64,000 bases of DNA, taken from the sequence record KM407600; one strand, given 5' to 3'. The position numbers were made by a program, and so were the translations under genes. The notes below the pieces were generated by a model that had not been told where the DNA came from, did not search any database, and saw nothing but the letters and a program-made list of their open reading frames with translations. Of the stretch, positions 3,643-48,500 are shown in pieces (the stretch's first letter is position 1; every line of letters begins with the position of its first letter). The stretch is from Shigella phage Shf125875.

Positions 3643-3912
3643 TTATTTCTGTGCAATTTCGATGTAAGTTTTCAAAATATTTTGCCAATTAGGCATACCT
3701 TCTTGGACATATGCCGGAGAACCGTCTTTGTTTTTGAATGATGCAAGTTTATCAGTGGCCCAATAACCTTTAGCTCGAGCTTCAGAATCAACTTTCATCC
3801 ATACTTTGTTGAAGGCATTACCATTAACTTTTGCACCATATTTTTCTACTAACTTAACTGCTTCAGCTTCTAGAACTTTTAAAGTATCTCGTAAGAAACG
3901 TGCTTTAGTCAT
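3643..3912 (-). CDS. hypothetical protein (between 23 and 24)
   Basis: 89-aa ORF on the opposite strand, preceded by an early-type promoter at 3943-3972. Confidence 0.5.
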   Translation of the reverse strand: MTKARFLRDTLKVLEAEAVKLVEKYGAKVNGNAFNKVWMKVDSEARAKGYWATDKLASFKNKDGSPAYVQEGMPNWQNILKTYIEIAQK

Positions 3913-3942
3913 TTTGTTTACTCCTCTGTAGTTGATAAGTCT

Positions 3943-3972
3943 ATAGTATCACACGCCAAATACGTTGTAAAC
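3943..3972 (-). promoter_or_regulatory. early sigma70-type promoter (-35 GTTTACA, -10 TACTAT)
   Basis: Reverse complement reads GTTTACA, 17 nt spacer, TACTAT; upstream of ORF 3643..3912. Confidence 0.6.
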
Positions 3973-3978
3973 AATCTT

Positions 3979-3986
3979 TATAAATA
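3979..3986 (+). promoter_or_regulatory. late promoter for gene 24
   Basis: Exact TATAAATA 28 nt upstream of the 24 start. Confidence 0.7.
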
Positions 3987-4013
3987 ATCTATATCACATA
4001 AGGAAAAAATGCA

Positions 4014-5297
4014 ATGAGTAAAATCCAAAAATTATTGCGTGAATCTACAACGTCTACTAGCAACTCAATCGGTCGCCCAAATCTCGTTGCTTTGACTCGC
4101 GCTACGACTAAATTAATATATTCTGACATTGTAGCAACACAAAGAACTAATCAACCTGTTGCTGCTTTTTATGGTATCAAATATCTTAACCCAGATAACG
4201 AATTCACATTTAAAACTGGTGCTACTTATGCAGGCGAAGCTGGATATGTAGACCGAGAAAAAATTACTGAGCTCACAGAAGAATCAAAAGTCACACTAAA
4301 TAAAGGTGATTTTTTCAAATATAATAATATCGTCTATAAGGTGTTAGAAGATACACCATTTGCAGATATTCAAGAAAGTGATCTAGAATTAGCTCTTCAG
4401 ATTGCAGTCGTTCATTTAAAGGTACGGTTATTTTCAGATGCAGCGGTAACAAGCAAATTTGAAAGCTCTGATAGCGAAATTTCTGATGCAAGATTCCAGA
4501 TTAATAAATGGCAAACTTCAGTCAAATCTCGTAAACTTAAAACCGGCCTCACGGTTGAATTAGCGCAAGATTTGGAAGCGAATGGATTTGATGCCCCTAA
4601 CTTCTTAGAAGATTTGCTTGCTACTGAAATGGCTGATGAAATTAATAAAGATATTCTTCAGTCTTTAATTACTGTATCGAAACGTTATAAAGTTACTGGA
4701 ATTACTGACACCGGATTTATTGACTTGAGTTATGCATCAGCTCCAGAAGCAGGTCGTTCATTATATCGAATGGTGTGTGAAATGGTATCACACATTCAAA
4801 AAGAGACAACTTATACTGCAACGTTTTGTGTAGCCTCAGCTCGTGCAGCTGCTATTCTTGCTGCTTCCGGTTGGTTAAAACATAAGCCAGAAGATGACAA
4901 GTATCTTTCACAAAATGCTTATGGATTCTTGGCAAATGGATTACCTCTTTACTGCGATACCAACAGCCCGTTAGATTATGTTATTGTGGGTGTTGTAGAA
5001 AATCTCGGCGAAAAAGAGATTGTAGGTTCCATCTTTTATGCTCCATACACTGAAGGAATGGATTTAGACGACCCGGAACATGTCGGTGCATTTAAAGTTG
5101 TAGTTGATCCGGAAAGCTTACAACCGTCTATAGGTTTATTGGTTAGATATGCTTTATCAGCAAATCCTTACACAGTAGCAAAAGATGAAAAAGAAGCGAG
5201 AGTAATTGATGGCGGGGACATGGATAAAATGGCAGGACGTTCAGACTTGTCTGTTTTACTCGGTGTTAAATTGCCTAAAATTATTATAGATGAATAA
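4014..5297 (+). CDS. 24: capsid vertex protein gp24
   Basis: 427-aa ORF with late promoter upstream; gp23 paralogue position. Confidence 0.92.
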   Translation: MSKIQKLLRESTTSTSNSIGRPNLVALTRATTKLIYSDIVATQRTNQPVAAFYGIKYLNPDNEFTFKTGATYAGEAGYVDREKITELTEESKVTLNKGDFFKYNNIVYKVLEDTPFADIQESDLELALQIAVVHLKVRLFSDAAVTSKFESSDSEISDARFQINKWQTSVKSRKLKTGLTVELAQDLEANGFDAPNFLEDLLATEMADEINKDILQSLITVSKRYKVTGITDTGFIDLSYASAPEAGRSLYRMVCEMVSHIQKETTYTATFCVASARAAAILAASGWLKHKPEDDKYLSQNAYGFLANGLPLYCDTNSPLDYVIVGVVENLGEKEIVGSIFYAPYTEGMDLDDPEHVGAFKVVVDPESLQPSIGLLVRYALSANPYTVAKDEKEARVIDGGDMDKMAGRSDLSVLLGVKLPKIIIDE

Positions 5298-40979: not shown

Positions 40980-41013
40980 TTTATTCTCCTCTTCACTTTT
41001 ATTTGATAGGGCT

Positions 41014-41043
41014 ACTATAACATAACCCTATCTTGTTATAAAC
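41014..41043 (-). promoter_or_regulatory. early promoter
   Basis: GTTTATA, 17 nt, TATAGT; upstream of ORF 40737..40979. Confidence 0.55.
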
Positions 41044-41435
41044 TACTTTTTAAAAGTTTTTTGCAAAAGTTTGATGATTTCGTCGACGTTGGTTTCATCT
41101 ACGATACAATGGATTTTTGTTACACCTAAAGTTATACCTTCGTTAGTAGGTTGAGGCTTTACTAAATCTACCTCAATAAAGTATTTGAACTCGTCAGGAT
41201 AAATCTCAAAATAAGTTTCAATTTCACCACCGGCAGAACATACAGTACCATCTTCCATAGTTACACTTACTACGTTTGACGTATCGTTATCATAATCAGG
41301 TTCCATTCCGTTTACAACAAAACTAGGCCCATGGAGTTCAATCAATTTTAACATCTTAGCGTTATTGTGTGGTGCTTCTTGAACAAAGTCATCTTTAAAT
41401 AAAGGGTTGATGATATAAGATTTTCCGATTTCCAT
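41043..41435 (-). CDS. hypothetical early protein (frd.3 position)
   Basis: 130-aa ORF with early promoter at 41465-41493. Confidence 0.5.
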   Translation of the reverse strand: MEIGKSYIINPLFKDDFVQEAPHNNAKMLKLIELHGPSFVVNGMEPDYDNDTSNVVSVTMEDGTVCSAGGEIETYFEIYPDEFKYFIEVDLVKPQPTNEGITLGVTKIHCIVDETNVDEIIKLLQKTFKK

Positions 41436-41464
41436 TTTGATTTCCTCATGTTGTTGATAAGTCT

Positions 41465-41493
41465 ATAGTAACACATCTACGGAAGAAGTAAAC
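41465..41493 (-). promoter_or_regulatory. early promoter
   Basis: GTTTAC, 17 nt, TACTAT; upstream of ORF 41043..41435. Confidence 0.6.
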
Positions 41494-41517
41494 AACTTTT
41501 TCAGCAATTTACAGATA

Positions 41518-41542
41518 CTCAAAAGGGAGACCGAAGTCTCCC
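41518..41542 (-). terminator. gene 32 terminator (UUCG-loop hairpin)
   Basis: Minus strand reads gggagacttcggtctccc then ttttgag, 7 nt after the gp32 stop. Confidence 0.8.
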
Positions 41543-41548
41543 AATTTA

Positions 41549-42448
41549 TTATAAACCAGCTAACAGGTCATCAAGGTCGCCATCATCAGAAGACGAGGAA
41601 CTCATGAAGTCATCTTCAGTTTTTGCAGAACTAAAGGCTTCCATGTCTTTATCAAAATCGTCAAGGTCAGAAGCAACTTTATCTGCAACAGAAGCTGCTG
41701 CGGCTGCTGCACCACCAAGAGCGGCAGTACCAAGAACCTTAGCGAAAGATTCATTTAATTTTTCGAAGGATTTGAACTGGTCTTTAGCCGTCAAAGTAGT
41801 AAGGTCTACCATCTGGTCATACAGTTCTTTCTGGAATGCTTCGTCATTAATACGAGGAATTTCAGATTGACCCAAGAATTTAGATTCGTCATAGTTGCTA
41901 AAACCAGAAACCTGCTTAGCTTTCAGAACGAAGTTAGCACCTTCAAACGGACAAGTAACATCAACTGGAGTTTCACCCATTTCGGTATCAACTGCAATCA
42001 TTGCATTGATTTTGTCCCAAATCTTTTTACCGAAACGATATTTAAATACTTTACCTTCGTTATCTGGAGCTTGAGGGTCTTTAACAACCAGAATATTAGC
42101 CCAATAAGAAGTTTTACGTTTCAGTTGAGAATATTCAGTTTTGTTGGTATTGTACAGGTCATTTTTACTAATGTACTGACATACAGGACAAGAGTCGTAA
42201 TCACCATGTGTAGAAGAGCAATTTTCAATATACCATTTACCATTTTTCTTGAAACCGTGGTTAACAAGAATTGCAAATGGTAGTGCATCATCAGTTTTTG
42301 CTGGCAGGAAACGAATTACCGCTTGACCATTACCTGATGCATCTAGCTTCAGCTTCCATTCGCCTTTATCTTCTGAAGAGAAACCTTTGTTACCGTTCAG
42401 TTTAGCCATTTGAGCAGCGAGGTCAGCAGTAGATTTACGTTTAAACAT
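41549..42448 (-). CDS. 32: single-stranded DNA-binding protein gp32
   Basis: 299-aa ORF, N-terminus [36 protein letters not shown] recognised as gp32; acidic C-terminal tail. Confidence 0.97.
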
Positions 42449-42540
42449 TATATTTACCTTTATTTAGATTATTTAGATTATTTAGATTATTTAATTTATT
42501 TACAGTTGGTTGCTACGACACTTATACCTCGTAGCTGGTA
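42449..42540 (-). promoter_or_regulatory. gene 32 translational operator: A/U-rich unstructured leader with 9-nt tandem repeats, plus upstream hairpin (pseudoknot candidate)
   Basis: mRNA leader reads UAAAUAAUC repeated three times then AAAGGUAAAUAUA-AUG; hairpin GCUACGA...UCGUAGC at 42512-42535. Confidence 0.7.
42451..42505. repeat. tandem 9-bp repeat (tatttagat; three perfect copies plus degenerate flanking copies)
   Basis: Direct reading of 42461-42487 (three perfect units) with degenerate units on either side. Confidence 0.85.
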
Positions 42541-42582
42541 TGATTTATTTATAAAGTAATTTTAACAAACAAGAAATAAAGC

Positions 42583-43236
42583 TTAATACTTACATGATTT
42601 GATTGTTTCTATGAACAATTTCTTAGCAGCATTTCCGTCGATTTGAAGTATTTTTCGATATGCCTTTAATTTGGTAGAATAATTTTGCCAGACTAAATTG
42701 TCGGTGAGTTCGTCGTGCTTATCTATAATATTCAAGAATGAATCCAACAACAAGAAGGTTTCAAATGAAATTATATTGCTTTGTAGCAATTTAAATATGT
42801 AGCTCGACTGAACTTTATTATTATAATCAAATATCTCTTGAAGCGCACTAACTTCCACTTTCTTACTGAAATAGTAGATGTTACGTACATCTTCAGCAAA
42901 CGTCTCCTTGGCTTGTTTGAGACGTCCAATATATTCCCTATAGAAAACTAATGCATCAGCGTCTGATATCTCACCAATCCATGCATCTTGGTTAGCAACT
43001 AAGTTACTGATGAATATCAAGGTGAGTTCCTTTAACTTATATTTCTCTGCTAGTTTCTCAAAGAAATATTTATCTCGGCGTTTTTGATACGCATTATCCG
43101 AAACACGCATGCACCAGTTATATTTGATTACGTCATACCGACCACCAAAATGGTTTTTGCACATCAAGTATAGTTTATATACCGATTTTCCATTAATATA
43201 ACGTTCTCCATCAGGAGGCATGCGTATTTTAATCAT
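42583..43236 (-). CDS. 59: helicase loader gp59
   Basis: 217-aa ORF recognised as T4 gp59-like. Confidence 0.93.
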   Translation of the reverse strand: MIKIRMPPDGERYINGKSVYKLYLMCKNHFGGRYDVIKYNWCMRVSDNAYQKRRDKYFFEKLAEKYKLKELTLIFISNLVANQDAWIGEISDADALVFYREYIGRLKQAKETFAEDVRNIYYFSKKVEVSALQEIFDYNNKVQSSYIFKLLQSNIISFETFLLLDSFLNIIDKHDELTDNLVWQNYSTKLKAYRKILQIDGNAAKKLFIETIKSCKY

Positions 43237-43912
43237 ATTTCCATCCGGACCATTTTGAAGATTTAAGTCTATATGTAACTAAAGACGCAGAAATATTAAA
43301 AACATTTGAAACTTCTTTACACGAGGCGTATTTTATACCATCAATAATTATAGGTTTTTGTTTTTTAATAGTTCTTTCTTTAGAATGCGGCTTTGAATTT
43401 GCTATTCTAAGAGCTTCTTTGGTTGAATCGGGCATCGGCTTATTCGTTTTTCGCCCTTTTCGGACTTTGCTCAAGGCCAATTTGTGAGCTTCAGATAGTT
43501 TCTTACCCTTATTAGGTGACGATATTTTCTTTTCTAGTCTTGTTTTAGATACTTTAGCCTTAGTCTCTTCAGATCTAGGTTTACCTAATTTAGAAAGTGA
43601 AATAGCCCTTTTAGCTTCATCACTTTGTTTTTTACCAGGACCACCTTTACCACCGGGAACTAAGTTATAAGTATCATCTCGCAAAACAAAATCTTCGTTA
43701 ACCAATTCTGCTTCTTTTTTATAGGCGTCCTTGTCATTATCATATTCATAAAGAATTTCGGTATAAAAATTTTTTAGTCCATATTTAGCTTTGGCCGCTA
43801 ATATAGCGCGGCCTGATCCAATATACCAATCTTTCTCTTTATGTTTTTTGTGTACGCCTATATAAATTTTACCATTTATTTTATTGGTAGTTTTATACAC
43901 AACGTATTTCAT
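43229..43912 (-). CDS. free-standing GIY-YIG homing endonuclease (Seg / I-TevI family)
   Basis: 227 aa; GIY-YIG motifs (YVVYKTTNKINGKIYIGV, YIGSG), NUMOD3-like repeats, basic C-terminal DNA-binding region. Confidence 0.8.
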   Translation of the reverse strand: MKYVVYKTTNKINGKIYIGVHKKHKEKDWYIGSGRAILAAKAKYGLKNFYTEILYEYDNDKDAYKKEAELVNEDFVLRDDTYNLVPGGKGGPGKKQSDEAKRAISLSKLGKPRSEETKAKVSKTRLEKKISSPNKGKKLSEAHKLALSKVRKGRKTNKPMPDSTKEALRIANSKPHSKERTIKKQKPIIIDGIKYASCKEVSNVFNISASLVTYRLKSSKWSGWKYD

Positions 43913-44247
43913 AATAAGAAATCTAACGTATTAGTTTTTTCACCACGAGCAACTGATGGGCGAAGCATATTTTCGTCAATTGCTTCGCTTGTAATTTTTT
44001 CAACAATTCCTGTAGGAATAAATTTAGCAAATTGTGTTTCTGGAATAGAATTTTCTTCCAAGAAAGCAGTTGTTGCTTCTAAATAAGACATACCAAATTG
44101 CTCAACCATGGATTCGATAATGAATCCGTTTTCTTGACGGTCAAGCAATTTAGCGATATCATCTTTATCATGTTTTACTGCTAATTCTTGTTCAGATAAA
44201 CCGGTCTCATCAACCGGTTTAATATCACTTAGTGAAAACTGTGTCAT
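43909..44247 (-). CDS. 33: late transcription accessory protein gp33
   Basis: 112-aa ORF recognised as gp33-like. Confidence 0.9.
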   Translation of the reverse strand: MTQFSLSDIKPVDETGLSEQELAVKHDKDDIAKLLDRQENGFIIESMVEQFGMSYLEATTAFLEENSIPETQFAKFIPTGIVEKITSEAIDENMLRPSVARGEKTNTLDFLL

Positions 44248-44512
44248 AAAGCTCGACTACCTCTTCGTTTTCAGCTTCAAATTGGTCACGAGCATCTTTA
44301 TGATAAAGAGCTAACAAACGATTAAACATTTTTCCATCAACGCCAAGCTCTTCTTTAGCACGAGTACGAATGTCTTTAATCAGTTCATTATAACCAGAAA
44401 TTTTAAGTTTGTTATCGGAAGCTTCCTTGACTAGTTTAGCCAGTTCTTCACCATGCACATCTTGATTAAATTCAACTGCTTCTTTCTTAGCCATGTTTAC
44501 CTCAGAATTCAT
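44225..44512 (-). CDS. dsbA: DsbA double-stranded DNA-binding protein
   Basis: 95-aa ORF between 33 and rnh. Confidence 0.75.
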   Translation of the reverse strand: MNSEVNMAKKEAVEFNQDVHGEELAKLVKEASDNKLKISGYNELIKDIRTRAKEELGVDGKMFNRLLALYHKDARDQFEAENEEVVELYDTVFTK

Positions 44513-45419
44513 TAATTACACTTGTTAATTTAGAAAGACCCGATTTTACAAAGTATGAATAAATCTTGCCTTTAGGTTGTTGTTTATATGAGTTATAATA
44601 CTCTATAATGGTTGAAGCAATATTATCAGGGATATAATCAAAATCAATGAGAACCAAATTTTCTTGGTACCGTTTATATTCTTCTGCACTTAATAATACT
44701 TCAGCTTGAGAACGGTCATTAGCAATTGCTTCAATAATCGTTGTTTTCATACTCGGAGTTCGTTCGCCTTCAACTCGAGTAAACCAGAAATCACCACGAA
44801 CTCGAACAGACGCAACACCATCTTTACGGTCGCCTTTAAGAATTTTAGTCATGCAATCAATTTCGGCAGAACCATTCTTAATTTTAACCCATTTTTTCTG
44901 TGGTGGTGACCACTGTTTAACGTTAGGGTATTTGTGTAATTGTGTAAAGTCACCATCTGATGCAACAATACATACCTTATGACCAGCTAATGACAAATAT
45001 TTAGTTAATACACCGATATGGTCATCCGCTTCGTATTTGTCAATATCCATTACAACGTATGGCATATATTTCTTAATCTCATCAACAACTTGATGGAGTG
45101 CAGTAAAATATCCTTCCCAATCCCACTTTGAAGCTTCACGATCGGTTTTACGATTTTTCTTATAATAGTAAGCAAAGTCACGACGCCAATATCCAGAAGT
45201 AGCGTTATCCATGCACAATACAAATTTTGTATAACCTTGCTTACGGAACATCACTACGTTTTTACGAATTGAATTCAAGACTACATGACGAACCATCGGA
45301 ACAGTAATTTTATCACCATCTTCAAAGTTGTTTAATGCAGCTGCCAATGCAATGTTACTAAAGTCTGCAAGCGCAATACCTTCTTTGTAATCTTCATCCA
45401 ACATCATTTCTAAATCCAT
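44502..45419 (-). CDS. rnh: RNase H (5'-3' exonuclease, FEN family)
   Basis: 305-aa ORF; synteny and size. Confidence 0.92.
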   Translation of the reverse strand: MDLEMMLDEDYKEGIALADFSNIALAAALNNFEDGDKITVPMVRHVVLNSIRKNVVMFRKQGYTKFVLCMDNATSGYWRRDFAYYYKKNRKTDREASKWDWEGYFTALHQVVDEIKKYMPYVVMDIDKYEADDHIGVLTKYLSLAGHKVCIVASDGDFTQLHKYPNVKQWSPPQKKWVKIKNGSAEIDCMTKILKGDRKDGVASVRVRGDFWFTRVEGERTPSMKTTIIEAIANDRSQAEVLLSAEEYKRYQENLVLIDFDYIPDNIASTIIEYYNSYKQQPKGKIYSYFVKSGLSKLTSVINEF

Positions 45420-45452
45420 ATGAACCTCTTGTTCAGTTAGTCAACTTAGACC

Positions 45453-45482
45453 ATAGTAACATACTAGTTCGAAAGCGTAAAT
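45453..45482 (-). promoter_or_regulatory. early promoter for rnh
   Basis: ATTTAC, 18 nt, TACTAT; upstream of the rnh ATG. Confidence 0.45.
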
Positions 45483-45497
45483 AGTCTTTTACTCATT

Positions 45498-45505
45498 TAT
45501 AAATA
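45498..45505 (+). promoter_or_regulatory. late promoter for gene 34
   Basis: Exact TATAAATA 35 nt upstream of the 34 ATG. Confidence 0.7.
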
Positions 45506-45539
45506 GTAAAATAGAACACATAATGATAAGAGGACTACC

Positions 45540-48500
45540 ATGGTTGACATCAAACGTAAGTTCAGGGCCGAAGATGGTCTTGACGCAGGCGGTGATAAGA
45601 TAGTTAACGTTGCGCTTGCTGACCGCACAGTTGGCACCGATGGCGTGAACGTTGACTTTTTGGTGCAAGAAAACACCGTACAGAATTATGACGATACGCG
45701 CGCGTATACAAAAGATTTTATTGTTCTTTATGATAATCGTTTTTATCAAGCTTTAAACGATATTCCAGCTCCGGCAGGCCCTTTCTCTTTGGCTAAATGG
45801 AAGTCAACTCGTACAGATGCAGAATGGACTACAGTTCAAGGCGGAGATTTCCAATTATCAGTAGGTAACTCTATTGCGGTTGATACTTCAGCTGGCACTG
45901 ATATTAATTTCACTTTGCCTCAAAATCCTTTAAATGGCGATACAGTTATTTTGTCTGATATTGGCGGTAGAGTAGGCTATGTAAAAGTTCAAATTACTGC
46001 AGAGGCTCAAAGTATTGTAAACTTTAGAGGACAACAGGTTCGTTCAGTTTTAATGACGCACCCAAAATCTAAAATGGTCTTCATTTTTAGCAACCGCCTA
46101 TGGCAAATGTATGTTTCTGATTACGAACGTAATGCAGTCACAGTAACTCCTGCTAAGCCATATCAGGCGCAACCTAACGATTTTATCATTCGACGTTTTA
46201 CATCAGCCGCTCCTATTAATATTACATTGCCTCGCAATGCTAATAATGGCGATATTATTAATTTAGTTGATTTAGACAAATTAAACCCGTTATATCACAC
46301 AATTGTCAAAACTTACGATGATACAACTTCTATACGAGAAGCCGGTGTTCATGTAGCAGAAGGACGTAATACTGCGGAAGCATTCTTTGTTTATGATTCT
46401 GCTAATAGCTTATGGCGTGTTTGGGAAGGTGACCAGAAATCTCGTTTACGTATAGTTCGTAATGATACTGATTTACGCCCTAATGAAGAAGTTCTTGTTT
46501 TTGGAACTAATAATGATACAATCTCGACGGTAAATCTTACTTTGCCTACAGATATTTTGTCTGGCGATACTGTTAAAATATCGTTGAATTATATGCGTAA
46601 AGGGCAAACTGTAAAAATTAAAGCTGCTGAAGGCGATACAATTGCTAGCAGTATTTCTTTATTACAGTTCCCAAAACGTTCGGAGTATCCACCTGATGCA
46701 CAATGGGTTTCTGTTAGTGAGCTGGAATTTAATGGTGATACTTCGTATGTACCTGTACTTGAGTTAGTTTATATAGAAGATTATTCATCTGAAACAAAAT
46801 ATTGGGTAGTTCAACAAAACACCGTAACCGTCGAACGAGTCGATGCATCGAGCAATACAACTCGAGCTCGTTTAGGTGTTATTGCTCTTGCTTCTCAAGC
46901 GCAAGCAAATGTCGATTTAGAAAATGCTCCTGGTAAAGAACTGGCTATTACTCCGGAAACATTAGCAAATCGTACAGCAACTGAAACTCGTCGTGGTATT
47001 GCTCGTATTGCAACAACTGCACAAGTTAACCAGAATACCGATTTTGCATTCCAAGACGACTTGATTATTTCTCCTAAGAAATTGAACGAACGTACAGCAA
47101 CTGAAACCCGTAGAGGTGTTGCTGAAGTTGCAACTCAAGCTGAAACTAATGCTGGAACAGATGACACCACTATTATTACTCCTAAGAAATTGGATGCCCG
47201 TCAAGGTTCTGAAGTTTTATCTGGTATTGTAAAATACACATCTACGACTGGTACTATAGCTGCTACTATTCGCGGTAATGCTGGGACTAACGTTTATAAC
47301 AAAGCCGTAGATAATTTAACTATTTCTCCAAAGGCTCTTGACCAGTATAAAGCTACCCCTACTCAGCAGGGTGCAGTAATTCTTGCTATTGAAAGTGAAG
47401 TTATCGCTGGCGAATCACAAGCAGGTTGGGCTAATGCTGTAGTGACCCCTGAAACTCTGCATAAGAAAACTTCTACTGATGGGCGTATTGGTTTAATTGA
47501 AATTGCTACGCAAGCAGAAACTAACACTGGAACTGATTATACTAGAGCAGTAACGCCTAAGACGTTAAATGATAGGAAAGCTACGGAAGGATTATCTGGC
47601 ATAGCCGAAATTGCTACGCAAGTTGAATTTGATACTGGAACTGACGATACTCGTATCTCGACTCCACTGAAAATTAAAACTCATTTTGATTCTTCTGGCC
47701 GTACCAGTGTTAATTCTGATTCCGGACTTATTGAAGAAGGAACCTTGTGGAACCATTATACTCTTGATATTTCTAAAGCAAATGAAACACAACGCGGTAC
47801 ACTTCGCGTAGCGACCCAGGCAGAATCTAATGCAGGAACTTTAGATGATGTTCTTATTACTCCTAAAAAGCTTTTAGGGACTAAGTCCACTGAAACGTCT
47901 GAAGGCGTAATTAAGGTTGCTACTCAGGCTGAAACTGTAACAGGAACTTCTGCTAATACTGCTGTATCACCTAAGAATTTAAAATGGATTGTTCAATCAG
48001 AACCATCATGGACTGCTACTACGGCAATTCGTGGATTCGTTAAAACTTCATCTGGTTCTATTACATTTGTTGGTAATGATACAGTTGGTTCAACACAATC
48101 TTTAGAATCATATGAGAAAAATAGCTATGCGGTATCACCATATGAATTAAACCGTGTACTTGCTAACTACTTACCGTTGAAAGCTAAAGCAGCTGATAGT
48201 AATTTGTTAGATGGTCTAGATTCTCTTCAGTTCATCCGTAGAGACATCGACCAGACGGTTAATGGTTCTTTAAGTCTTACTAAACAGACCAACCTGAGTG
48301 CTCCTTTAGTATCTACAAGCACTGCTTCTTTTGGTTCCGAAGCATCTGTTACTCGTAGATTAACTCTTAATGATTCTAGCGGTTCTGAAATAATTTTCAC
48401 TAAAGGAACCCAATCTCTTAGTAATAAAGAGAATTTCGTTGTTAGAGCATGGGGTAATAGCGCTACAGATGGTGCCCGTGATACAGTATTTGAAGCGGGT

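Follow-up and report, generated by a model that had tools for sequence, protein, structure and literature searches.

Free-standing homing endonucleases rank among the chief causes of gene-content variation and local allele replacement in T4-type phages, Mosigvirus phages under consideration for therapy and biocontrol among them. Cleavage and co-conversion of a neighbouring gene by the T4 enzyme SegG were reportedly described by Liu et al. in 2003. PMC2988022 describes SegG as acting at a distance, cutting an essential replication gene next to it and co-converting that gene, and places segC, segF and segG in a 'promoter-less cassette' class. SegB and SegC are experimentally characterized site-specific nucleases according to PMC2330249 and PMC2988022, and the former describes both as promoting preferential inheritance of their own region. 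For SegD, which lies between genes 23 and 24 of T4 and has relatives at the SegH position, activity is listed as 'not determined' in PMC2988022. I-TevI, encoded in the T4 td intron, combines a GIY-YIG domain, a long linker with a zinc finger and a helix-turn-helix domain; its Arg27 lies on helix 1.

Here we describe an endonuclease gene of this type at a site that is empty in T4. The material is a 64,000-nucleotide stretch of Shigella phage Shf125875 (KM407600; hereafter the window), to which all coordinates refer; the features discussed lie on the minus strand. The phage is an RB69-like (Mosigvirus) T4-type phage. The open reading frame at 43229–43912 is probably a functional, free-standing, Seg-like GIY-YIG homing endonuclease gene (HEG) of a clade found at the junction of genes 33 and 59, predicted to home with co-conversion of adjacent DNA. 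It is an ordinary further member of a well-known kind, already labelled in databases.

A cassette seated in the overlap of genes 33 and 59

The open reading frame starts with ATG and encodes 227 amino acids followed by a stop codon. Its position between genes 33 and 59, as given in the preliminary description, is borne out by Pfam matches of both neighbours. Gene 33, the late-transcription coactivator, lies intact upstream (43909–44247; Trans_coact, 3.4e-26), and gene 59, the helicase loader, lies intact downstream (42583–43236; T4_Gp59_N, 1.9e-49; T4_Gp59_C, 1.7e-44). At one end, the endonuclease start shares an ATGA with the stop codon of gene 33 (43909–43912). At the other, the endonuclease stop codon TAA falls within an 8-nt overlap with the gene 59 start (ATGATTAA, 43229–43236), the same overlap that had been noted earlier. 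Since the gene 59 start sits within the 3' end of the endonuclease gene, it acquires a new upstream context, GGATGGAAAT.

In HEG-less phages the same ATGA serves as gene 33 stop and gene 59 start. Comparison of junctions had been proposed as a way to define the insertion boundaries, and alignment with the HEG-less Mosigvirus LF82-1 delimits a cassette of 676 extra nucleotides (43233–43908), the ends of which can slide by the 5-nt repeat TATGA. The genes span 1665 nt with the HEG and 989 nt without it. The insertion is clean: the cassette falls exactly within the ATGA by which genes 33 and 59 are otherwise joined, leaving each of them complete. The start setting of gene 59 in HEG-less phages, an ATGA behind gene 33 with no Shine-Dalgarno sequence, is here that of the endonuclease.

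Domain organization and active-site residues

Searches with tblastn matched annotated homing endonucleases at 6e-136, and the nearest GenBank records label the gene 'homing endonuclease'. The protein also matches phrog_314 ('homing endonuclease', 2e-55) and passes TIGR01453 over its full length (73 bits; cutoff 56.05). The build is that of the I-TevI/Seg enzymes: a catalytic domain of the GIY-YIG type is followed by four NUMOD3-like helices and then by a DNA-binding domain like that of I-TevI. TIGR01453, PF20987 and the AlphaFold and Foldseek results support this; the family assignment made from the letters alone agrees with all of these. The catalytic domain (residues 1–91; 43640–43912) is delimited by invariant columns in 121 homologues, by the AlphaFold model and by matches to the I-TevI catalytic domain. 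The linker (residues 93–174; 43391–43636) holds the helical repeats, and the helix-turn-helix domain (residues 183–226; 43235–43366) matches Pfam I-TevI_DNA-bd (PF20987) with 44.3 bits against a cutoff of 27.

Other profiles fall below their thresholds. NUMOD3 (PF07460) scores 18.8 bits over two stretches, slightly under its cutoff of 20.4, and precomputed PF07460 matches are present in many homologues. SegE_GIY-YIG scores 18.6 bits, under a cutoff of 25, and the Pfam search gave no match of the 227-residue protein to PF01541. The AlphaFold2 model (pLDDT 91.6) places the linker helices at residues 98–108, 115–127, 141–153 and 162–173. Its best Foldseek matches are the structures 1MK0 and 1LN0 of the I-TevI catalytic domain (probability 1.00, E 4e-3 to 4e-2), with TM scores of 0.61–0.66 normalised to the target. 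The I-TevI DNA-binding domain (PDB 1I3J) was matched by phmmer (E 4.4e-4) and also by Foldseek.

Tyr6, Tyr17, Gly19, Glu67 and Asn83 are unchanged in 121/121 homologues. The GIY motif reads VVY6 and the YIG motif Y17-I-G19, both coinciding with Tyr6, Tyr17 and Gly19 of I-TevI; further motif residues of the catalytic domain are His21, Y30-x-G-S-G and Gly87-Gly88. Asn83 aligns with I-TevI Asn90. The register of Glu67 relative to I-TevI Glu75 is off by 1–6 residues depending on the aligner, and we equate the two because of the invariance of Glu67 and its location in the helix that precedes the Y-N motif. Of the catalytic signature named in the preliminary description, GIY, YIG and Glu are borne out, with Asn in addition. 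For Arg, the sequence and profile alignments give no alignable counterpart of I-TevI Arg27, residues 23–31 of I-TevI falling in a gap of the Seg-like profile. This lack of an alignable Arg is common to the whole Seg-like clade, SegB and SegC included. Arg35, at the start of model helix 35–44, is Lys or Arg in 89/121 homologues and Val in SegC and SegD.

The comparison with Seg proteins that the preliminary description had suggested, made with tblastn and global alignment, identifies SegD, SegC and SegB as the closest T4 paralogues, with SegD the closest. SegD aligns with 38% identity over 75% of the protein in tblastn and with 42% identity in global alignment. It shares the motif pattern YIGxH...DxYxGSG...KYG..NF...E...YN.GG, the NUMOD3-like linker and the C-terminal domain, but occupies the 23/24 site, whereas the clade described here is specific to the 33/59 junction. 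SegB and SegC are 41–46% identical across the catalytic domain, likewise free-standing, likewise without an alignable Arg27 segment, and have the same invariant Tyr, Tyr, Gly, Glu and Asn residues; they differ in their C-terminal regions and in their insertion and target sites (tRNA cluster; 5.1/5.3). With I-TevI, the overall identity is only ~24–26%, yet the three-part plan is the same, each end of the model finds its best structural match in an I-TevI domain, and the C-terminal 45 residues are homologous, including the stretch LVTYRLKS.KW. Unlike I-TevI, the 33/59 endonuclease is free-standing and has four NUMOD3-like helices in place of a linker with a zinc finger. No other GIY-YIG paralogues were found in a search of the 64,000-nt window.

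Expression signals

Neither the late-promoter motif TATAAATA nor a MotA box was found inside the HEG or just upstream of it. A MotA-like box is found no closer than 44621 and a late motif no closer than 42553, the latter ahead of gene 32. Sigma-70-like matches are not enriched (18 observed; 12.4 ± 3.7 expected), RNA structure over the HEG start is not significant (z = -0.72), and no promoter-like element specific to the HEG was found. No Shine-Dalgarno sequence precedes the endonuclease start. Because the start lies in an ATGA without such a sequence upstream, translation of the endonuclease is presumably coupled to that of gene 33. The lack of a promoter and Shine-Dalgarno sequence of its own matches the promoter-less class of segC, segF and segG.

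Distribution and age of the insertion

The HEG is present in 27/170 matching records and, by junction query, in ~28/153 Mosigvirus records (~18%), which leaves ~125/153 without it. These figures describe GenBank records as the population sample; an IMG/VR scan with gp59 yielded a single Mosigvirus locus. Presence varies within ICTV species: in JS09, SSE1 carries the gene and ST0 lacks it, and in mar005p1, JK42 and WFbE185 carry it and p000y lacks it. Far from being universal among T-even phages, it is missing from T4 and from 19/21 diverse T4-like loci, where gene 33 abuts gene 59 with no HEG between them.

Orthologues with 46–58% identity occupy the identical 33/59 junction in AnYang, IME540 and LQ5, in Serratia phages CHI14, CBH8 and LC53, in Kosakonia phage Kc304 and in metagenome contigs. 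The LC53 copy adjacent to gp33 is reported in LC53 and Kc304 and missing in Virsaitis27 (PMC10132071). Enterobacter phage KMB20 has a match of 47% identity; the only adjoining gene given for it is a 'transcriptional regulator', which leaves the site unconfirmed. Homologues below 40% identity occupy other sites.

Alleles of the HEG differ by dS values of up to 0.24, the same as in the flanking gene 59, with dN/dS of 0.09–0.13. Judged from these sequences, the insertion is an old event in this gene pool and not a recent one, in view of the diverged orthologues at this position in other genera and of allele dS values this high. For much of its history the gene may have been inherited vertically, with losses, and not have spread actively, because allele dS equals that of gene 59 and divergence across genera is about that of gp33; in LQ5, identity is 56% for the endonuclease and 56% for gp33.

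Linked variation in gene 59 and a proposed homing mechanism

At the 5' end of gene 59, we compared ten HEG-bearing with eleven HEG-less related genomes. Position 43177 is T in 10/10 of the former and C in 10/11 of the latter. Through positions 43155, 43153 and 43146–43145, gp59 has Asn28 and Gly31 in 10/10 HEG-bearing genomes and Gln28 and Asn31 in 8/11 HEG-less ones, and 43189T, 43183A and 43150C occur in HEG-bearing genomes only. The linked variants are confined to nucleotides 47–91 of gene 59 (43145–43189) and absent on the gene 33 side; some are private to a single endonuclease allele group. Among HEG-less phages, ST0, p000y and vB_EQ1 are examples of the majority allele (C at the position equivalent to 43177, gp59 Gln28/Asn31), LF82-1 combines Asn28/Gly31 with C at 43177, and the AV111/F2 type has a fully HEG-bearing-like flank. 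The cluster suggests a nearby target, immunity determinant or co-conversion tract as candidate explanations. With 10 versus 11 related genomes as its basis, it could also arise by plain linkage to the insertion, and it maps no cut site. In other genera, the nearest HEG-less relatives among the genomes compared are only ~72% identical, too distant for the same comparison to be informative.

In the homing mechanism we propose, small amounts of the endonuclease would be made from the dsbA-33-59 message. During mixed infection with a HEG-less relative, the helix-turn-helix domain, together with the NUMOD3-like linker, would anchor the protein at the 33/59 junction or close to it, and the tethered GIY-YIG domain would cut close by, most likely in the first ~60–90 nt of gene 59. 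Repair by recombination with the HEG-bearing genome would then carry the HEG, along with the neighbouring 5' end of gene 59, over to the recipient, with homing, co-conversion and partial marker exclusion as the outcome. Protection of the carrier would come either from a splitting of the site by the insertion or from the linked gene 59 substitutions at 43177 and in codons 28 and 31. Marker exclusion and gene conversion, which the preliminary description attributed to genes of this kind, are inferred here. In the literature searched, we found no paper naming this endonuclease and no cleavage, homing or exclusion experiment on it or an orthologue.

The strongest competing explanation, which we nevertheless regard as unlikely, is a gene long established here, passed on by vertical descent and no longer able to home: a decaying relic, or a domesticated protein acting, for example, as a DNA-binding regulator or as a nuclease against competing phages or host DNA, with its patchiness caused by repeated loss. 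The parity of its divergence with that of gene 59 and gp33 fits such a history. So do the direct repeat of 5–10 nt at the cassette ends, which could permit precise loss, the frameshifted copy in AV116, and six HEG-less records that, in database-wide haplotype counts, bear the complete HEG-bearing-like gene 59 haplotype. A relic, however, is difficult to reconcile with a dN/dS of ~0.1 and invariant catalytic residues. The varying presence among phages of one species that are more than 95% identical fits ongoing exchange more easily than repeated loss, and the variants private to HEG-bearing genomes directly adjoin the HEG. Domestication and homing are not separable by sequence data alone.

A possible capture of the gene 59 start

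In every lineage examined, the first bases of the endonuclease reading frame repeat the start of the local gene 59. The copy is ATGATTAAA in most lineages; in one contig, ATGATTCGTC opens both the endonuclease and gene 59. It is conceivable, although we advance this tentatively, that the 33/59 endonucleases form a distinct, ancient, site-specific Seg lineage that has a 'start-swap' cassette design and whose cut in gene 59 drives a gp59 allele. If so, the endonuclease would capture the coupling of gene 59 to gene 33, and the 3' end of the cassette would hold the replacement start of gene 59, so that the helicase loader would depend for its expression on the HEG being kept. Cleavage inside the first ~90 nt of gene 59 would then spread gp59 Asn28/Gly31 through Mosigvirus populations.

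Homing at this site would matter for the genes on either side, 33 acting in late transcription and 59 in replication. If active, the HEG would skew which gene 59 alleles are inherited from mixed infections, and it would mark a boundary to genetic exchange. The locus also offers a putative monomeric nuclease of the I-TevI kind whose natural insertion site is defined, together with diverged orthologues for specificity studies and naturally HEG-less alleles that appear to be sensitive, or perhaps resistant. In concept it goes no further than SegA–G: it is one more member.

Relation to intron-encoded endonucleases and to SegG

The TIGR01453 model that the protein passes is named 'group I intron endonuclease', and the records of 348Ecol098PP and WFbE185 carry a group I intron endonuclease name, so an intron-encoded enzyme has to be considered. 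We judge this highly improbable. The reading frame overlaps the two complete genes between which it lies, the HEG-less junction is intact and reveals no split host gene, and in 41000–46000 an Rfam search gave no hit to group I introns or to any other family. What the name reflects is no more than family resemblance to I-TevI.

A functional analogue of the 33/59 endonuclease sits on the other flank of gene 59. The gene order in T4 is 33-59-segG-32 (T4 record; PMC2988022), which agrees with the statement in the preliminary description that segG lies between genes 59 and 32 and not at 59/33. SegG is likewise a promoter-less free-standing GIY-YIG gene; it differs in lineage, in site and in its target, gene 32. 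Despite the shared neighbourhood and enzyme superfamily, there is next to no chance that the gene is a copy or orthologue of segG displaced across gene 59, given ~23% identity in global alignment, no SegG tblastn match to the window at E<=0.01, no I-TevI-type C-terminal domain in SegG in the alignment, and the closer similarity of SegD, SegC and SegB; the earlier reading of an insertion independent of segG holds. LQ5 carries both the 33/59 endonuclease and, between genes 59 and 32, a SegG-like open reading frame with an N-terminus resembling that of T4 SegG, a further argument against displacement. Endonucleases of the SegG type and of the 33/59 type can coexist in one genome. A metagenome contig (L048) has the 33/59 endonuclease together with a 221-residue open reading frame between genes 59 and 32 that has no Pfam match.

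The endonuclease gene at the 33/59 junction

The 227-aa endonuclease ORF occupies 43229..43912 on the minus strand, between gene 33 (43909..44247; Pfam Trans_coact, gp33) and gene 59 (42583..43236; Pfam T4_Gp59_N and T4_Gp59_C). The same strand carries rnh (44502..45419) and dsbA (44225..44512; Pfam Phage_DsbA) upstream and gene 32 (41549..42448) downstream. The tetranucleotide ATGA is common to the gene 33 stop and the endonuclease ATG, and the gene 59 start, ATGATTAA, contains the endonuclease TAA, giving an overlap of 8 nt. Re-reading of the ORF and sequence confirmed the coordinates and the 8-nt overlap of the preliminary description.

The region is 95–99% identical to phages of Mosigvirus, the RB69-like genus containing the window phage. 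The closest match, Shigella phage SHSML-52-1 (98.9%), has the ORF annotated as 'homing endonuclease'. The ORF is carried by 27 of 170 matching records, and in the others gene 33 is joined directly to gene 59. When a 141-nt query representing the endonuclease-free (HEG-less) junction was searched, 153 Mosigvirus records matched: 125 junctions were colinear with it and about 28 were interrupted. Presence and absence occur even within ICTV species, namely JS09 (present in SSE1, absent in ST0) and mar005p1 (present in JK42 and WFbE185, absent in p000y). Two of the compared loci, from Escherichia phage ST2 (OM982647.1) and PaulHMueller (MZ501098.1), have taxonomy lines reading Kagunavirus and Tequatrovirus, respectively, yet show 96–97% nucleotide identity to Mosigvirus here; these lines are probably database mislabels.

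The window has 676 nt (43233-43908) that HEG-less genomes lack, with a boundary that is ambiguous across the repeat TATGA. In every lineage compared, the endonuclease ORF opens with the first codons of the local gene 59. The shared start is ATGATTAAA in phage LQ5, metagenome contig L048 and locus L016, and the window copy is the same start without the ATT codon; in locus L050, ATGATTCGTC opens both ORFs. The first 8–10 nt of the endonuclease ORF repeat those of gene 59 (2501-2510/3090-3099 in L050; 43903-43912/43223-43236 in the window), and the two copies co-vary, with ATGATTCGTC in both in L050 versus ATGATTAAA elsewhere. Candidate explanations are that the target is duplicated independently whenever the gene is transferred, or that the coupled start site is under constraint. 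Because both ORFs begin with the same codons, the endonuclease sits at the original start position of gene 59, coupled to gene 33 and without a Shine-Dalgarno sequence; gene 59 now begins within the endonuclease 3′ end, at GGATGGAAAT-ATG. This duplicated gene 59 start is a new, if modest, addition.

Searches around the endonuclease start found neither a late-promoter motif nor a MotA box, and no significant RNA structure. The gene resembles segC, segF and segG, which are promoter-less cassettes (PMC2988022). A MotA-box-like ATTGCTTCA lies at 44595-44625, in the rnh 3′ end upstream of dsbA; as a bare consensus match, it is a possible middle promoter for a dsbA-33-(endonuclease)-59 message. Annotation of the dsbA start differs among relatives (89 aa versus 95 aa; 44494-44512): the downstream ATG at 44494 is preceded by a GAGG Shine-Dalgarno sequence, while the ATG farther upstream, at 44512, overlaps the rnh end and lacks such a sequence.

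Family, architecture and catalytic residues

Over its full length the protein passes NCBIfam TIGR01453 (73 bits versus a cutoff of 56), and it matches phrog_314 'homing endonuclease' (2e-55). An I-TevI DNA-binding domain at residues 183-226 scores above the Pfam threshold; NUMOD3 and SegE_GIY-YIG both fall slightly under it. The sole match in a PDB sequence search was that domain of I-TevI (1I3J). An AlphaFold2 model built from 121 homologues (pLDDT 91.6) features a β-β-α-β-α N-terminal domain, four linker helices that correspond to the NUMOD3-like repeats, and at the C-terminus a small helix-turn-helix domain. In the PDB, it best matched the I-TevI catalytic domain structures 1MK0 and 1LN0 (TM 0.61–0.66, target-normalised), along with 1I3J. 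The label 'group I intron endonuclease' is a family name only; there is no intron.

Residues Y6, Y17, G19, Y30, G32, E67, N83, G87 and G88 are invariant across the 121-sequence alignment, and H21 is kept in 120 of the 121. I-TevI Y6, Y17, G19 and N90 align with Y6, Y17, G19 and N83, whereas the Seg-like profile has a gap opposite the I-TevI segment bearing R27. Helix 1 opens with R35, a position that holds Lys or Arg in 89 of 121 homologues and Val in SegC and SegD. SegB and SegC share the Arg pattern of the window protein, and both are experimentally active (PMC2330249; PMC2988022). By analogy with these active enzymes, the lack of an alignable R27 equivalent may therefore be a clade trait rather than a sign of inactivity. 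The ORF belongs to a thoroughly studied family, and many GenBank records already label it a homing or Seg-like endonuclease; literature searches found no paper naming or testing it.

Independence from segG and a junction-specific clade

The T4 gene order is 33-59-segG-32, SegG is ~23% identical to the window endonuclease, and a tblastn search of the window with SegG gave no match. A set of 21 diverse T4-like loci, drawn from IMG/VR plus LQ5, has genes 33 and 59 directly adjacent in all but two cases; LQ5 has a SegG-like gene between 59 and 32 as well as a 33/59 endonuclease. Together, these observations bear out both the position given for T4 segG in the preliminary description and the proposal that the present insertion arose independently of it; for the same reasons of divergence and co-occurrence, orthology with SegG was rejected. 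The gene 59–gene 32 intergenic region of the window contains no segG-like ORF. In LQ5 the ORF at that position (4318-4947 of the locus) encodes 209 aa with an N-terminus like that of T4 SegG. Contig L048 likewise combines a 33/59 endonuclease with a 221-aa ORF between 59 and 32 (3846-4511), the latter without a Pfam match. Gene 59 may thus be flanked by two homing endonuclease genes in some carriers.

Proteins 46–58% identical to the window endonuclease occupy the exact 33/59 junction in Escherichia phages AnYang, IME540 and LQ5, Serratia phages CHI14, CBH8 and LC53, Kosakonia phage Kc304 and two metagenome contigs. The homologue in Enterobacter phage KMB20 (47%) has a 'transcriptional regulator' as its sole listed neighbour and is therefore set apart. 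Homologues below 40% identity occupy other sites, for example 23/24 or beside a portal gene. The LC53 copy, gp244, adjoins Gp33 (gp245), and the LC53 paper gives the gene as present in LC53 and Kc304 and absent in Virsaitis27 (PMC10132071), the same polymorphism as in Mosigvirus but in a different genus. Recognition of this junction-specific clade across genera is a further modest addition.

Selection, linked variants and a proposed mechanism

Up to 43 nt separate Mosigvirus endonuclease alleles; dN/dS between them is 0.09–0.13 and dS reaches 0.24, equal to that of gene 59. Purifying selection acts on the protein, which has long resided in the Mosigvirus gene pool. The copy in Escherichia phage AV116 (within OR352946.1, 51447-52928) carries a 1-nt insertion at nt 307, causing a +1 frameshift and truncation past the catalytic domain; the record annotates merely a 138-aa 'hypothetical protein'. 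This could reflect gene decay or a sequencing error. That the ORF is a resident or domesticated gene that does not home and has been lost repeatedly seems to us unlikely.

As a homing endonuclease, the protein would be synthesized in low amounts from the dsbA-33-59 transcript and would bind as a monomer at the conserved 33/59 junction or close to it, via its C-terminal helix-turn-helix and NUMOD3-like linker. Here, gp33 ends in TLDFLL, its sliding-clamp-binding tail, and the gp59 N-terminus MIKIRMPP is likewise conserved; endonucleases typically target conserved sequence of this kind. The tethered GIY-YIG domain would cut both strands within some tens of bp, and T4-type recombination-dependent repair would copy the cassette from the carrier genome together with adjoining gene 59 sequence.

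In an alignment of 10 HEG+ and 11 HEG− genomes across 4.6 kb, a small and phylogenetically structured sample, presence-associated sites were confined to gene 59 nt 47-91 (43145-43189), with none on the gene 33 side. All 10 HEG+ genomes have T at position 43177, where 10/11 HEG− genomes have C. A stretch of 11 nt holds four substitutions that turn gp59 Q28/N31 into N28/G31 (10/10 HEG+ versus 3/11 HEG−), and 43189T, 43183A and 43150C, found in HEG+ genomes only, follow one endonuclease allele group. Among HEG-less records matched by the junction query, the full HEG+-like haplotype occurs in only six: AV111, F2 (two records), G2285, PNJ-9 and JQD51. A further ~15 records, most of them near-clonal LF82 isolates, are three positions off, with the N28/G31 codons common to at least the sampled LF82 genomes; the others are at least five positions off. 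As a lead, the cluster would fit obligatory co-conversion between the insertion and a cut site in the 5′ end of gene 59, by analogy with SegG and gene 32. It is also expected if the substitutions confer immunity, and plain linkage would give the same cluster, which does not map a cut site. The candidate co-conversion or immunity tract is likewise a modest new addition. The two Mosigvirus gp59 alleles at codons 28 and 31 (43145-43155) are Q28/N31 and N28/G31; T4 gp59 is also Q28/N31, and no examined locus outside Mosigvirus has G31.

In the interval separating gene 59 from gene 32, a 9-nt unit is repeated 4.8 times in tandem at 42460-42502, close upstream of the gene 32 start; it reads TTATTTAGA on the plus strand and TCTAAATAA in the gene 32 sense. 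A perfect late-promoter motif, TATAAATA, lies at about 42553, ~100 nt upstream. This stretch is probably the gp32 translational-operator region, as described for RB69 (PMC535899).
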